From a bacterium (GTDB lineage Bacteria; UBA8248): a DNA stretch of 64,000 bases. Positions 26,209 through 30,558 of the stretch are shown here, piece by piece (positions within the stretch are counted from its first letter, which is position 1; each line of letters begins with the position of its first letter). Position numbers and translations under genes: made by a program. The notes under the pieces are model-generated. The model did not search any database. It worked only from the letters and a program-made list of their open reading frames with translations, and was not told the DNA's origin. Location: positions 2,080,001-2,144,000 of the forward strand of contig OZ241326.1 of assembly GCA_965199855.1 (NCBI GenBank), given 5' to 3'.

Positions 26209-27246
26209 ATGAGCGATTCCCAAAAAATCGGCATGGCCTTCATCGGTCTCGGCTGGTGGGGCGCCGCGCTCGCCGACGCCGCCCTGGCCTCCGGGAAAGC
26301 GCGGGTGACCGGAGGCTTCGCCCGCACCCCCTCCTCCCGCGAGGAATTTATCGGCAAATACGGCGGCAGGAACTTCGGCTCCCTGGAGGCACTGCTGGCG
26401 GACGGGGAGACCGAGGCCGTCGTCATCGCCACCGCGAACTCCGTCCACAAGGAAATCGCCGTCGCCGCCGCCCGCGCGGGCAAGCACGTTCACCTCGAGA
26501 AGCCCATGGCGCTGAGCGTCTCCGACGCGAAGGCCGTCGAGCGCGCCTGCCGGGACTGCGGCGTGAAGCTCCACCTGGGGCAGAACTTCAGGCGCTGGCC
26601 GATGTTCCGCAAGGCGAAGGAAATCGTCGAAAGCGGGAAGCTCGGGCTGGTGAGCCTCGCGGTCGCCACGTTCTCCAACAACCACGGCTTCACGGCGGGG
26701 CCCGGCAGCATGAGGTGGGACGCCGCGGAAAACCCCGGCGGGCCGCTCTACAGCTACACCATCCACCTGGGCGACGTGATGGAGTATCTCTTCGGCGAGG
26801 TGGCCGAGGTGAGCGCCCGATGCGCCAAGGTGGGCGGCCCCAACCCCCAGGAGGACGCCGCCGCCGCCATCCTGCGCTTCGAGAGCGGGCTTTTGGGCGC
26901 CGTTTCGGGCAGCTACCTCGCCCCGTTCCACTTCGCCTTCGACGTCCAGGGGACGGAGGCGAACCTGGGCCTCACCACGACGGACAACCCCACCCTCAAG
27001 CGGCCCATCGACATGATGGGCGGGGTGGAGACGGAAACCATCCCCCTCGACCACGACCTGGTGGAGGGGAGGCTGCTCGCCAACCGCGAGCAGTTCGACG
27101 ATCTCGTCGGCGCCATCCGCGAGGACAGGGACCCGGAAGTCACCGGCCGCCACGGCGTGCGCGCCCTCGCCGTCATGCGGGCGATTCTGAAAAGCAGCGC
27201 CGAGAGGCGGACGGTGACGATGGAGGAGATTCTCGAGACGGACTGA
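26209..27246 (+). CDS. Gfo/Idh/MocA-family oxidoreductase
   Basis: IGLGWWG, GKHVHLEKP and GG.L....IH..D. Confidence 0.92.
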   Translation: MSDSQKIGMAFIGLGWWGAALADAALASGKARVTGGFARTPSSREEFIGKYGGRNFGSLEALLADGETEAVVIATANSVHKEIAVAAARAGKHVHLEKPMALSVSDAKAVERACRDCGVKLHLGQNFRRWPMFRKAKEIVESGKLGLVSLAVATFSNNHGFTAGPGSMRWDAAENPGGPLYSYTIHLGDVMEYLFGEVAEVSARCAKVGGPNPQEDAAAAILRFESGLLGAVSGSYLAPFHFAFDVQGTEANLGLTTTDNPTLKRPIDMMGGVETETIPLDHDLVEGRLLANREQFDDLVGAIREDRDPEVTGRHGVRALAVMRAILKSSAERRTVTMEEILETD

Positions 27247-27341
27247 AAGCCCTCCGCCCCTCCCGCCCCCGGCGCCCGGCGTCCCTGTCATGCCGGCCGG
27301 GCCGCGCGTCGGGAGAGCGCTCCGCCCCGGGAGCAGCGCGA

Positions 27342-28058
27342 ATGGGCAGGCGCCGCGACACGCCGGACTTCACCCGCTCCAGCAGGCTCCTCTCGCTGAA
27401 CTACCGGCCCTCGCCGGAGGAGCGCGAACTCGCGCGCCGGCTCATCGCCTCCACCCGCGCGAGCGAGCGCGAAGCCTTGGGCCAGAAGCTGATTGACGGC
27501 GTCTGCCGCGCCATGAACATCCCGCCCGCGCGCCTGCGCGTGCTCGACGATCGACAGCCCCACAAGCTGCGCGGGGGGAAACTCGCCTACAAGGAATACG
27601 GCGTCTATTACTTCGGGAACGCGGCGATCGGAATCGCCAACCTCACCGCCGTGCGCGAGCAGGTCGTGGCGGGCAGGACGTTTTTCGACACCCTCGTCCA
27701 CGAACTCATGCACCACATCGACAGAAAGCTGCTCGGCATCCCCTCCACTCCGCACAGCCCGGGCTTCTACGCCCGCGTCGACGACCTGAAGGCCCGGCTC
27801 GCGCGCGCGAAGGGGCGCGAGCGGCCGCCGCCGAAGGGAGGCGCCTGGGAGCGGCCCGGAAACCTCAAGGCGGCGTTCGAGACGGCGGTCTCCGCCGCCC
27901 GGCGAAGAAGCGGGAGGGCGGACGCCGCCCCGCCGCCCGAAGCCGCGCCCCCCTCCCCCGCTCCGGAGCGAGGCGCGAAAAAGGATTTGCCCCGCCTCCG
28001 CCCGGAAGCCGACGCGCCGACCGGGGAGAAGGGACAGCTGGCGTTCGACTTCAGGTAG
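27342..28058 (+). CDS. Putative Wss1/SprT-like zinc metalloprotease with C-terminal QLAFDF motif
   Basis: TLVHELMHH...PHSPGFY (HExxH plus a third His), a low-complexity tail and terminal QLAFDFR. Confidence 0.65.
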   Translation: MGRRRDTPDFTRSSRLLSLNYRPSPEERELARRLIASTRASEREALGQKLIDGVCRAMNIPPARLRVLDDRQPHKLRGGKLAYKEYGVYYFGNAAIGIANLTAVREQVVAGRTFFDTLVHELMHHIDRKLLGIPSTPHSPGFYARVDDLKARLARAKGRERPPPKGGAWERPGNLKAAFETAVSAARRRSGRADAAPPPEAAPPSPAPERGAKKDLPRLRPEADAPTGEKGQLAFDFR

Positions 28059-28271
28059 GCGTATTCGCTCCCCCCGCAAGGGACGCTCGCGCGAACCATG
28101 AGACGCGGAGCGGGCGGCCGTCTCCCGAAGAGGGGAAAGGAGGGGCACCCGGCGGCGGGAGGCGCGTATTCCAGGCTTGTATTTCCTCCGGCGATTGGGT
28201 AAAGAGGAAACGGAGCGGACAATCGTCCCCTTCATCCAGTCGAACGCCTTTATGAGAGGAGCGTCTTCACC

Positions 28272-28964
28272 ATGCGACCGGCGAACGATATCGTCCAAAA
28301 GCCCTGGGGCCCGATGGCCGGCTTCTGGTCCTGGCGGTACCTGAACCTCTGGAAAACCCTGAAGCTCGTCACCAGCAAGCGGGTCAAGAGCTTTTATGAG
28401 AAATTCCCGGACGTTCTGCCCCCCGGCACCCCCTTTCCGGATTTCGAGCTCGGGGACATTCACGGAACGCGCCGCCGCATGGCGGACTACCTCGGCAAGA
28501 AGTACGTGGTGATCACCACGGGCGCCATCACGTGACCGCCCTACAGGCGGCAGGTGCCGTTCTATGAGGAGCTCCAGGAGAAATACGCGGAGCGCGACGT
28601 GGTCGTCTTCAACCTCTACGTGCGGGAGCCCCACGCGGGCGAGCGCGGCTTCCCGGAGGTGCGGAACCACGAATCCTACGAGCACAAGCTGGGCTGCGCC
28701 AGGGAGCTGGCCGAAATCAAGGGCATGAAGACCGGCATCCTGGTCGATGAGATGGATCAGAAGGTGCACGCCATGCTCGGCGACCTCCCGAACACCATCT
28801 GGCTCATCGGCAGGGACGGGAAGGTCGCCTACAAGTGCAGCTGGTCGAACGCCGAGCACGTGGACGAATATCTGGTCGGGATGGTGAACGCGGACCCCGC
28901 CTTTGAGGGGATGCCGAAAATGGAGCGCACCATCTTCACCGCCCGCGCCGGAACGGCCATCTGA
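28272..28964 (+). CDS. Deiodinase-like thioredoxin-fold selenoprotein (Sec at codon 88, TGA 28533-28535)
   Basis: ORFs 28272-28535 and 28554-28964 are in the same frame. Read-through gives PDFEL..., TGAIT-U-PPY and YVREPH, matching deiodinase GSxTUPxF and YIxEAH motifs. Confidence 0.85.
28536..28570 (+). promoter_or_regulatory. Putative bacterial SECIS element
   Basis: Hairpin CGGC-AGGT-GCCG (28548-28559), extendable by G-U pairs. The G-containing loop starts about 17 nt after the UGA. Confidence 0.6.
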
Positions 28965-29027
28965 AGACGCTCTTTCGCCCCCGGAAGCGGGGGGGCATCT
29001 TCATCACGCGCGCAGGAGGAGCCCCGC

Positions 29028-29552
29028 ATGGACGCGCCCGCCATCATCTCGGAACGCCTGGAAGCCTACGGCATGAGGCTCCGGGAAGTCATGGAGGACG
29101 TGAGCGACGCGGACCTCATGGTTCAGCCGGGCGCCAACGACAACCCCATGGGCTGGCTCGTCTGGCACATGACGCGCTTCGAGGACAGGACGTTCTCCTT
29201 CCTCGCCGGGGCGCCGCAGTTCTGGCTGGAGGCGAAATGGCACGATCGCTTCGGCATGGCGGCCGAGGCCGGGCGCGACGGCATGGGCGACACGCTGGAG
29301 CAGGCGCTCGCGCTCAAGGTGAGCAAGGACGCCCTGATGGGCTATTTCGAGGCGGTGCGCGAGAGGACGCTCGCCTGCCTCTCGGAGCTTCGCGCGGCGG
29401 ACCTGGACGAGGAAAGGGACGATTTCGCGGGTCCCGGGCGCATCAAGGTCGGCCTGCTCCTGGGGCGGTATCTGGGCGATCACCTCTCCCACATGGGGCA
29501 GATCTGCTATCTGCGGGGGCACGTCGCCGGCTGGGGGCGGTATCCGAGATAG
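29028..29552 (+). CDS. DinB-family protein
   Basis: NPMGWLVWH..RFED and H..H.GQI.YLRG. Confidence 0.88.
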   Translation: MDAPAIISERLEAYGMRLREVMEDVSDADLMVQPGANDNPMGWLVWHMTRFEDRTFSFLAGAPQFWLEAKWHDRFGMAAEAGRDGMGDTLEQALALKVSKDALMGYFEAVRERTLACLSELRAADLDEERDDFAGPGRIKVGLLLGRYLGDHLSHMGQICYLRGHVAGWGRYPR

Positions 29553-29556
29553 AGAG

Positions 29557-30558
29557 TCAGTCGAGTTCTCCCAGAATCCGAATCGCGCGCCTCGCTTCCT
29601 CCTCCTCCATCTCGTCGGGCGCCCGGAAAAGCGGCCGGGAGACGCCCGCCTCCCGAAGGGCGGCGAGCTTCTCCGCGCATCTCGACCGGGGGCCGCAGAC
29701 GCTGAGCTCGTCCACGAGGGCGTCCGGCAACGCCTCCCCCGCCGCCTTGCGGCCGCCCTTTCTCCACGCCGCCCGAATCGCGTCCGCCTCCGCGCCGTAG
29801 CCCCAGCGCGTGAGCTGGGCGTGGTAGTAGTCGCCCATCGCCCCGACGTAGAAGCCGAGTTCCGGCCTCACGAGGGCGCGGGCGCGCGCCAGGTCGTCGA
29901 GGGGAGCGGCATAGACGAAGGGCGCCACGTCGATTTCCGACGCCGCCCTGCCCGCCGACGCCGCCCCCTCCTCAAGATGCCTCATCGCCTCCCGCATTCT
30001 CGAGAACGGGACGCAGAAGGGAATCCAGCCGTCGGCGACCTCCCCCGTCAGCCTCGTGTAGTTCGGGCCGTTCGCGCCCAGATAGATGGGCAGCCGCTCC
30101 TGAGCCGGCCCGCGCCGCAGCTTGAAGCCGCTCATCCGATAGACCTCGCCGTCGAGCTCCACCCGCTCCCCCCGGAACGCCTGCCGCAGGGCGTCCACCA
30201 TCTCCCGGGTGCGCTTCAGGGGGCTTCCGAAAGGAACGCCGTGCCAGTTCTCGATGACCGCCCGGCCGCTCGAGCCGAGCCCCAGGCGGAAGCGGCCGCC
30301 GCTCAGAACGTCGAGCTCCGCCGCCGTCTGCGCCATGAGGCCCGGGCTTCTGCCATAAACGTTGAACACCGCCGCGCCCAGCCCGATGCTCTTCGTCCCC
30401 GCCGCCGCCATGGCGATGAGAACGCTCCCGTCGCGCACCCAGGTTTCGGGAAACCACAGCGAGTCGATTCCCGAATCCTCGCACCACCGCGCGAACCGGG
30501 GAACCTCCCGCGCGTCGATGGTCTCCTGGTGCCGCAAAACCACGCCCTTGCCCGCCAT
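29557..30558 (-). CDS. Luciferase-like (LLM) flavin/F420-dependent oxidoreductase
   Basis: LD.LSGGRF.LGLG.S, PIYLGANGP and GEVADGW. Confidence 0.88.
   Translation of the reverse strand: MAGKGVVLRHQETIDAREVPRFARWCEDSGIDSLWFPETWVRDGSVLIAMAAAGTKSIGLGAAVFNVYGRSPGLMAQTAAELDVLSGGRFRLGLGSSGRAVIENWHGVPFGSPLKRTREMVDALRQAFRGERVELDGEVYRMSGFKLRRGPAQERLPIYLGANGPNYTRLTGEVADGWIPFCVPFSRMREAMRHLEEGAASAGRAASEIDVAPFVYAAPLDDLARARALVRPELGFYVGAMGDYYHAQLTRWGYGAEADAIRAAWRKGGRKAAGEALPDALVDELSVCGPRSRCAEKLAALREAGVSRPLFRAPDEMEEEEARRAIRILGELD

Follow-up and report, generated by a model that had tools for sequence, protein, structure and literature searches.

A deiodinase-family gene with a putative in-frame selenocysteine codon in a bacterium of the UBA8248 lineage

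When two open reading frames (ORFs) share a frame and are separated by a single TGA, the question arises whether this triplet ends a gene or is read as an amino acid. Such a pair occurs in a stretch of 64,000 nucleotides from a bacterium of the GTDB lineage UBA8248 (assembly GCA_965199855.1, contig OZ241326.1, positions 2,080,001 to 2,144,000 of the forward strand). The whole stretch is referred to here as the window, and positions are those of the window unless a genome or locus handle precedes them. Based on the sequence alone, a first-pass annotation had interpreted the pair as one hidden gene for a selenoprotein resembling iodothyronine deiodinases, with selenocysteine (Sec) encoded by the TGA. 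The computational comparison reported here favors this interpretation. The best explanation overall, with a probability of roughly 0.9, is a single gene for a soluble, cytoplasmic deiodinase-family selenoprotein of 230 residues, in which the UGA of codon 88 would be read as Sec (U88). That the gene is a genuine, Sec-decoded member of the deiodinase family is considered very likely on comparative grounds.

The two frames and the dividing TGA at 28533-28535 were found as the annotation had described them. The combined frame starts with the ATG at 28272, ends with the TGA at 28962-28964 and contains the triplet at codon 88 as its sole internal in-frame TGA. Its read-through product of 230 residues was reproduced, including the segments TTGAIT-U-PPY and YVREPH. 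In all 30 orthologs that were cut out for comparison (68-100% identity) the ATG start occupies the same position and codon 88 is a TGA. The same TGA is present in all 20 distant orthologs and paralogs that were cut out (38-54% identity), and the local motif across these 50 Sec sequences is T-U-[PA]-P-x-R-R-Q. A read-through search of 51 genomes of the phylum located strong matches (E <= 1e-43) holding one TGA in 48 of them, in numbers from one to four per genome. The remaining three genomes gave no match (G008) or weak redoxin-like matches only (G011, which is 67% complete, and G013). According to a hand count of the resulting table, a single TGA is present in every one of the 109 phylum matches that span codon 88 (E <= 1e-26); in one match a TAG occurs besides it. 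Six phylum matches are free of TGA (E 2.6e-40 to 2.9e-13); they are incomplete, and none of them covers codon 88. The terminal stops of the 30 orthologs are TAG in 24 cases, TGA in five including the present gene, and TAA in one. This interchange indicates that TGA is an ordinary stop in these organisms except at codon 88.

A profile-free homolog search returned 1880 proteins at E <= 0.001. Among the best 150 of these, 125 are full-length representatives (150-480 aa), and 113 of the 125 harbor cysteine at the UGA column, where the annotation had called for Cys or Sec, the rest having serine (4), glycine (3) or other residues. Public sequencing data agree on the triplet itself, as the contigs of four runs all read TGA and none reads TGC or TGT. 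No base other than those of TGA occurs at the site in contigs of the DNA runs X3, X4 and X5, which belong to three studies, and one contig of the RNA-library run X20, derived from a relative, bridges the TGA unchanged. One X5 contig carries 10 additional bases inserted immediately after 28962, at the terminal stop; this strain variant would alter the C-terminal end.

The genome was also analyzed for its potential to decode UGA as Sec. Matches above the curated cut-offs were obtained for selA, selB, selD and the tRNA-Sec encoded by selC (79.4 bits), so that all four components are present. The selD gene (G000:C1:2985603-2986568, minus strand, locus L001) contains an in-frame TGA near the N-terminus of its product (...RAGG-U-GSKLG...), followed about 11 nt downstream by a GGGUCC-GGA-GGACCU hairpin. 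This indicates that selenophosphate synthetase is a selenoprotein here too. A second Sec-containing deiodinase-like gene is located at G000:C1:933704-934327 on the plus strand (locus L102, 4205-4828); it shares 41% identity with the present gene and matches PF00837 with 53.8 bits. Similar hairpins, with small G-rich loops, follow the UGAs of both selD and this paralog at a distance of 9-12 nt. In the available part of the BSepDB report, metagenome-assembled genomes (MAGs) of UBA8248 (NCBI label Nitrospinota) are listed among the ten bacteria richest in selenoprotein genes, with 48-54 such genes (PMC13326102). One MAG ranked there, FO_M_Nitrospinota_01, is the record of locus L095, which holds a 70%-identical ortholog.

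A hairpin of the sequence CGGC-AGGU-GCCG, starting 13 nt after the UGA and resembling a selenocysteine insertion sequence (SECIS), had been noted in the first-pass annotation and is indeed present. Its core consists of CGGC (28548-28551), AGGU (28552-28555) and GCCG (28556-28559), the first base being the 13th after the UGA. Two flanking G-U pairs lengthen the stem to 6 bp, and the extended stem starts 11 nt after the UGA. Covariation was measured on a gapless alignment of the 50 Sec sequences (30 orthologs and 20 distant orthologs and paralogs). In the upper hairpin 92.5% of the cells are paired, and the covariation score of 0.239, compared with 0.088 in shuffles, was reached by none of 500 shuffles. 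Three of the six pairs change on both sides, in 15 cells (C-G to A-U, G-C to A-U and G-U to C-G). Synonymous variation was determined as codon entropy in 29 orthologs, with locus L050 omitted for a one-codon insertion. Codons 93-96 (CGG CAG GTG CCG) show zero synonymous entropy versus a gene mean of 0.764 bits, and among 162 windows of six codons those covering codons 91-96 and 92-97 rank 2nd and 4th. As the stem-loop is written into the codons of R92-F97, the residues R92-R93-Q94 do not vary among the 50 Sec forms, whereas they do in Cys forms. The loops AGGU, AGUU and AAGU, which are 4 nt long and keep a conserved G, fit the bacterial SECIS as outlined in the accessible text of PMC1088965, with an apical loop that is small and holds a G after the UGA. 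In the structure of minimum energy computed for the stretch that follows the UGA, a lower stem is added, with which the element would span about 35 nt. During decoding as envisaged from these comparisons, SelB with Sec-tRNA(Sec) would bind the hairpin as the ribosome reaches UGA88. A competing hairpin into which the UGA itself is folded, the one of minimum energy for the single sequence, was rejected: it is mostly invariant, falls apart in divergent members, and has a covariation score of 0.031, a value attained in 20 of 500 shuffles. A scan of 27000-30000 against Rfam gave just two chance matches (mir-608 and EBER1), far below their gathering scores. The lowest synonymous variation in the gene is found elsewhere, in codons 174-179 (28791-28808), a window that ranks 1st of 162 and lies below the SECIS window in the 29 orthologs.

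The assignment to the deiodinase family is based on several comparisons. Of the three Pfam models that pass their cut-offs, PF00837 (T4_deiodinase) scores highest with 44.5 bits (cut-off 27), and this model is matched by 40 of 41 aligned proteins. A phmmer search of the PDB found mouse Dio3 (4tr3, a Sec-to-Cys mutant) at E 2.4e-6, in an alignment that places GAIT-C-PPY on GSCT-C-PPF, YVREPH on YIEEAH and NHES on QHRS. Together with the conserved TGA and the Cys homologs, the PF00837 score supports the annotation's proposal of a thioredoxin-fold selenoprotein of the deiodinase family. The AlphaFold2 model, built with 41 sequences, has a mean predicted local distance difference test (pLDDT) value of 85.4, with residues 1-22 and 225-230 below 50. 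In a Foldseek search, ResA/TlpA-type and Bcp-type proteins rank first and Dio3 is found at rank 21. Because ResA/TlpA stands above Dio3 in this list, the predicted fold agrees with the family assignment and is no proof of it. The longest structural alignments are those with Dio chains, which extend over 157-164 residues versus about 137 for TlpA-like chains.

Residues around the putative Sec were compared with the proton relay proposed for Dio2, which according to the available text comprises Ser127, Thr129, Tyr157, Glu160, His162 and His182 beside Sec130 (PMC11592359). Mapping by the HMMER alignment to Dio3 and the Dio2/Dio3 numbering of that publication gives A85, T87, Y116, E119, H121 and H133 beside U88 as counterparts, five of the six being kept. 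T87, Y116, H121 and H133 are present in all 50 Sec forms and E119 in 49. The position three residues before the catalytic one is mostly Ser in Cys-form homologs (96 of the 125 representatives). At position +3 the Sec sequences read U-P-P-[YF] in 38 of 50 cases and contain A, T or S in the other 12. No other Cys is conserved among the 50 Sec forms, C189 occurring in 25 of them, and for this reason Sec88 appears to have no internal resolving partner. With the Kyte-Doolittle scale, a crude test, no membrane segment was detected; the top 19-residue mean, 0.65, belongs to the core and not to the N-terminal region. By these features the protein looks soluble and cytoplasmic, unlike the animal deiodinases. 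At the N-terminus, P11, G13, P14, G17, W19 and S20 (P-x-G-P-x-x-G-x-W-S) are kept in 48-50 of the 50 Sec forms, and the region that contains this motif (28272-28337, residues 1-22) is modeled with a pLDDT below 50. The stretch could be a binding or targeting motif.

Several observations weigh against this reading, in whole or in part. The decoding of UGA88 as Sec, though almost certain, is derived from comparison between sequences. Run X3 may be the source of the present assembly. In the X20 contig 12 of 184 bases are different, and carry-over of DNA is possible in that RNA library; as this contig stems from a relative and may represent such carry-over, it was dropped as evidence of expression. 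Folding of the single sequence gave z = -0.85, with 36 of 200 shuffled versions forming structures of equal or greater stability. Thus the support for the hairpin comes from comparison between sequences and not from folding energy: the proposed SECIS-like element covaries and its synonymous sites are frozen, but its energy in a single sequence is not unusual. A control in which the pairing was slid by +1 still scores 0.203 though only 57.5% of its cells are paired, which indicates that part of the covariation score reflects relatedness. The lower helix is just 72% paired across the 50 sequences, and constraints on protein and RNA are not fully separable because the hairpin lies in conserved codons. 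At the protein level, AhpC-TSA (PF00578, 40.3 bits, cut-off 26) and Redoxin (36 bits) pass as well, the relay Ser is replaced by Ala85, as in 48 of the 50 Sec forms, and the loop between H121 and H133, compared with the Dio-specific insertion (loop-D) that borders the active site, has 11 residues versus 16 in Dio3. Clustering of flanking genes and a survey of neighboring monooxygenases revealed no gene neighborhood that points to a substrate. Finally, halogen chemistry is disfavored as the general function of the family, since most members are Cys forms.

If the TGA were a true stop, the locus would contain two small genes or a decayed gene, with a downstream frame that starts at GTG 28554 or is untranslated. 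Fixation of a nonsense mutation at a single codon would not occur, however, in 50 of 50 sequences whose identity falls to as little as 38%, with both halves remaining in frame and conserved at the protein level. According to the model neither half alone makes a thioredoxin fold, and the homologs are continuous with Cys at the TGA column. What speaks for a stop is that gene callers yield exactly the expected halves: 39 of 40 database matches are C-terminal halves of 127-137 aa that start at or near GTG 28554, and N-terminal halves of 87-112 aa ending in ...GAIT likewise stand as database entries. The annotation's expectation that standard procedures break the gene in two is borne out by these entries, but their candidate start codon sits inside the hairpin loop, and a true stop is considered very improbable. 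An in-frame TGA alone cannot distinguish Sec decoding from read-through in which a suppressor tRNA or a reassigned code would supply a standard amino acid, whether Trp, Cys or Gly. TGA ends the present gene and four further orthologs, however, where it interchanges with TAG and TAA, and the genome harbors tRNA-Sec, selA, selB and selD. The UGA in question is located at the catalytic Cys/Sec column and is followed by the covarying hairpin. Nothing specific favors such a read-through, which is given equally little credence.

On the reading of a Sec-decoded member of the deiodinase family, Sec88 would be the only redox residue, positioned beside T87 and the Y116-x-x-E119-x-H121 ... H133 network. 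The most likely mechanism, as judged from the family, would be a two-electron reduction: the selenolate takes an electrophilic atom from the substrate, namely a halogen as X+ or the oxygen of a peroxide, and the Y-E-H-H relay protonates the leaving group. The resulting Se-X or Se-OH form would then be reduced by an external thiol or thioredoxin, regenerating the selenol. Both functions suggested by the annotation, a reductive dehalogenase or a redoxin, are compatible with these data. The relay, which is of the deiodinase type, and the motif T-U-P-P-[FY] point more toward deiodinase-like chemistry, whereas the dominance of Cys forms, the near-universal and often multi-copy presence and the lack of an informative neighbor point more toward general redox chemistry. 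For a genuine Sec gene of the family, reductive dehalogenation of halogenated phenolics is regarded as rather unlikely, and peroxide or other thiol-selenol redox chemistry as possible at somewhat less than even odds, the rest going to other functions. A more specific proposal is that the Sec forms of the phylum are soluble, one-Sec, cobalamin-independent reductive dehalogenases, which would take iodine or bromine off halogenated phenolics (bromotyrosine derivatives, for example) and be recycled by low-molecular-weight thiols. It is speculative and improbable, though compatible with the conservation of the catalytic network in 49-50 of the 50 Sec forms and with the near-identical DNA found in runs labeled as sponge metagenome (X5). 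The same Sec-decoded gene may instead encode a peroxiredoxin-like peroxidase or thiol-selenol oxidoreductase that does not dehalogenate, an alternative to be taken seriously although it falls short of an even chance. It draws on the AhpC-TSA and Redoxin scores, on the ResA/TlpA and Bcp-type proteins at the top of the Foldseek list and on the use of Cys in most homolog representatives. A near-universal occurrence in the phylum also fits housekeeping redox defense better than a niche substrate. Peroxiredoxins carry the motif PxxxTxxC, with Thr or Ser three residues before the peroxidatic Cys. In nearly all Sec forms this residue is replaced by Ala, the Y-x-x-E-x-H ... H network is a relay of the deiodinase type, and PF00837 outscores both AhpC-TSA and Redoxin; peroxidase chemistry is still compatible with each of these differences. 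The accessible part of PMC1088965 likewise proposes a redox function, because one would not expect thyroid hormones in bacteria.

Coordinates of the putative selenoprotein gene, its elements and its neighbors in the window
Feature	Position	Strand	Basis and remarks
Deiodinase-like selenoprotein gene (putative)	28272..28964	+	230 codons plus stop, Sec at codon 88; frame reading, PF00837, phylum-wide conservation
Shine-Dalgarno-like GAGAGGAG	28254..28261	+	direct sequence reading; 10 nt before ATG
UGA putatively read as selenocysteine (U88), motif G-A-I-T-U-P-P-Y	28533..28535	+	TGA conservation, Cys in homologs, contigs
SECIS-like upper hairpin	28546..28561	+	GGCGGC (28546-28551), loop AGGU (28552-28555), GCCGUU (28556-28561); codons R92-F97
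Possible extended SECIS	28538..28572	+	lower stem 28538-28545 with 28565-28572; weakly supported
DinB_2 / mycothiol-transferase-like gene	29028..29552	+	PF12867 E 1.2e-13; 63 nt downstream of selenoprotein gene
HELMHH (HExxH, metalloprotease-like) ORF, no Pfam family	27342..28058	+	best match WLM E 0.13, not significant; 213 nt upstream
Luciferase-like monooxygenase	29557..30558	-	PF00296 E 1.6e-76; convergent

Genes in the neighborhood were compared across the ortholog loci. The annotation had drawn attention to a DinB-family gene beside the selenoprotein gene. It does lie adjacent and on the same strand, but this arrangement is limited to close relatives: the gene is adjacent in 20 of 30 ortholog loci and in none of the eight most divergent. 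A functional link was rejected for that reason. The DinB_2 gene scores 110 bits against NF047843, below the cut-off of 170. The HExxH ORF, for which ATG 27342 was chosen as a putative start, is conserved and occurs in 19 of the 30 loci, and four of these 19 belong to the eight most divergent. A luciferase-like monooxygenase is found near the gene in 23 of 30 loci. Behind the paralog, on the same strand, come a luciferase-like monooxygenase gene and a flavin reductase gene; the latter follows the paralog in two genera only (second genus: L114, L115). A general link to luciferase-like monooxygenases was considered and rejected. The two neighboring monooxygenases of this genome are just 24% identical, the genome has 28 PF00296 matches, and in 20 further loci a monooxygenase occurs within about 3.5 kb in just four, two in the same genus and two as divergent pairs in another family. 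In a genome of 3.04 Mb, 28 PF00296 matches represent a striking expansion. When flanking ORFs of 21 loci from 11 genera were clustered, the gene itself and its antisense shadow were all that recurred, and no partner gene emerged. The ORFs 26256-28058 (plus strand) and 27288-28859 (minus strand) match no Pfam family, and the latter is taken to be a GC-rich shadow frame. Scans of 27200-29800 found no promoter-like site and one terminator-like site, which lies on the opposite strand and is within shuffle expectation. In two genomes of one other genus, the ortholog and a paralog stand in tandem on the same strand, about 180-290 nt apart (G039:C1:2278980-2280447, locus L122, and G038:C50:9946-11419). 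This suggests that the ortholog and paralog types arose by tandem duplication.

By its sequence, the gene is a new member of the known bacterial deiodinase-like selenoprotein family, in a lineage known as rich in selenoproteins. Bacterial deiodinase-like selenoproteins and their Cys homologs were described from the Sargasso Sea by Zhang, Fomenko and Gladyshev in 2005 (PMC1088965). The Global Ocean Sampling (GOS) analysis of 2008 lists a deiodinase-like family with 22 Sec sequences and gives no motif for it in the available text (PMC2398784). Reviews of 2022 (PMC9312934) and 2026 (PMC13188914) state the family motif as UxxC. In the accessible part of the 2026 review, these selenoproteins are said to have been identified by bioinformatics, with functions that "remain largely ..." (PMC13188914). 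A literature search found no biochemical assay of any bacterial deiodinase-like member. The present clade shares PF00837, Sec at the catalytic position and Cys-form homologs with this family, and it is distinguished by its predicted solubility, the absence of a detected membrane segment and the conserved N-terminal P-x-G-P-x-x-G-x-W-S. Unlike the UxxC motif given in the available parts of the reviews, none of its 50 sequences has a Cys at +3. Since only 6 of the 125 full-length representatives, taken from the best 150 of 1880 homologs, have a Cys there, this difference is probably due to the choice of the listed representative. The NCBIfam model NF038285 (deiodinase_rel, a hypothetical equivalog of 347 residues) aligns its profile positions 181-324, the catalytic domain, with residues 54-189. 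The present protein has no counterpart to the N-terminal 180 or so residues of the model and is no member of NF038285, its 67.4 bits falling far short of the 250-bit cut-off.

With animal Dio1-3 (4tr3 for Dio3, 9h48 for Dio2) the present protein shares about 21-24% sequence identity, the active-site motif T-U-P-P-[FY], the Tyr-x-x-Glu-x-His segment and the distal His. The animal enzymes have an N-terminal membrane anchor, which the crude hydropathy test did not detect in the present protein, as well as proximal and distal Cys residues, which are absent here. Their Ser at -3 corresponds to Ala, and the loop between the two His residues is five residues shorter than in Dio3. Whereas the SECIS of animal deiodinases is an element of the 3'-UTR, the bacterial SECIS-like hairpin lies inside the coding region. 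Thyronines are not expected as a substrate of the present protein. Its fold is the same as that of 1-Cys peroxiredoxins and TlpA/ResA oxidoreductases, with equal structural scores, and like the 1-Cys peroxiredoxins it would use a single catalytic chalcogen. It differs from these groups in lacking CxxC and a Thr or Ser at -3, in possessing the deiodinase-type E-x-H with the distal His, and in its higher score with PF00837.

The present findings stay within what the discoverers of the family proposed. What is added here is a covarying SECIS whose arms are the codons of R-R-Q-V-P-F, together with Sec forms that are near-universal in the phylum and have no resolving Cys, membrane anchor or conserved partner gene. 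The practical yield is an annotation correction, as public protein collections hold the gene and its relatives only as halves. A well-supported, nearly phylum-wide and often multi-copy clade joins a selenoprotein family known for twenty years. Being small, predicted to be soluble, and equipped with a single redox residue and natural Cys-form relatives, the clade is a convenient first candidate for biochemistry. If the dehalogenase reading were true, it would have implications for how deiodinase chemistry arose, since such chemistry would then exist in bacteria and predate thyroid signaling, and it would provide a new enzyme class for the turnover of marine organohalogens.

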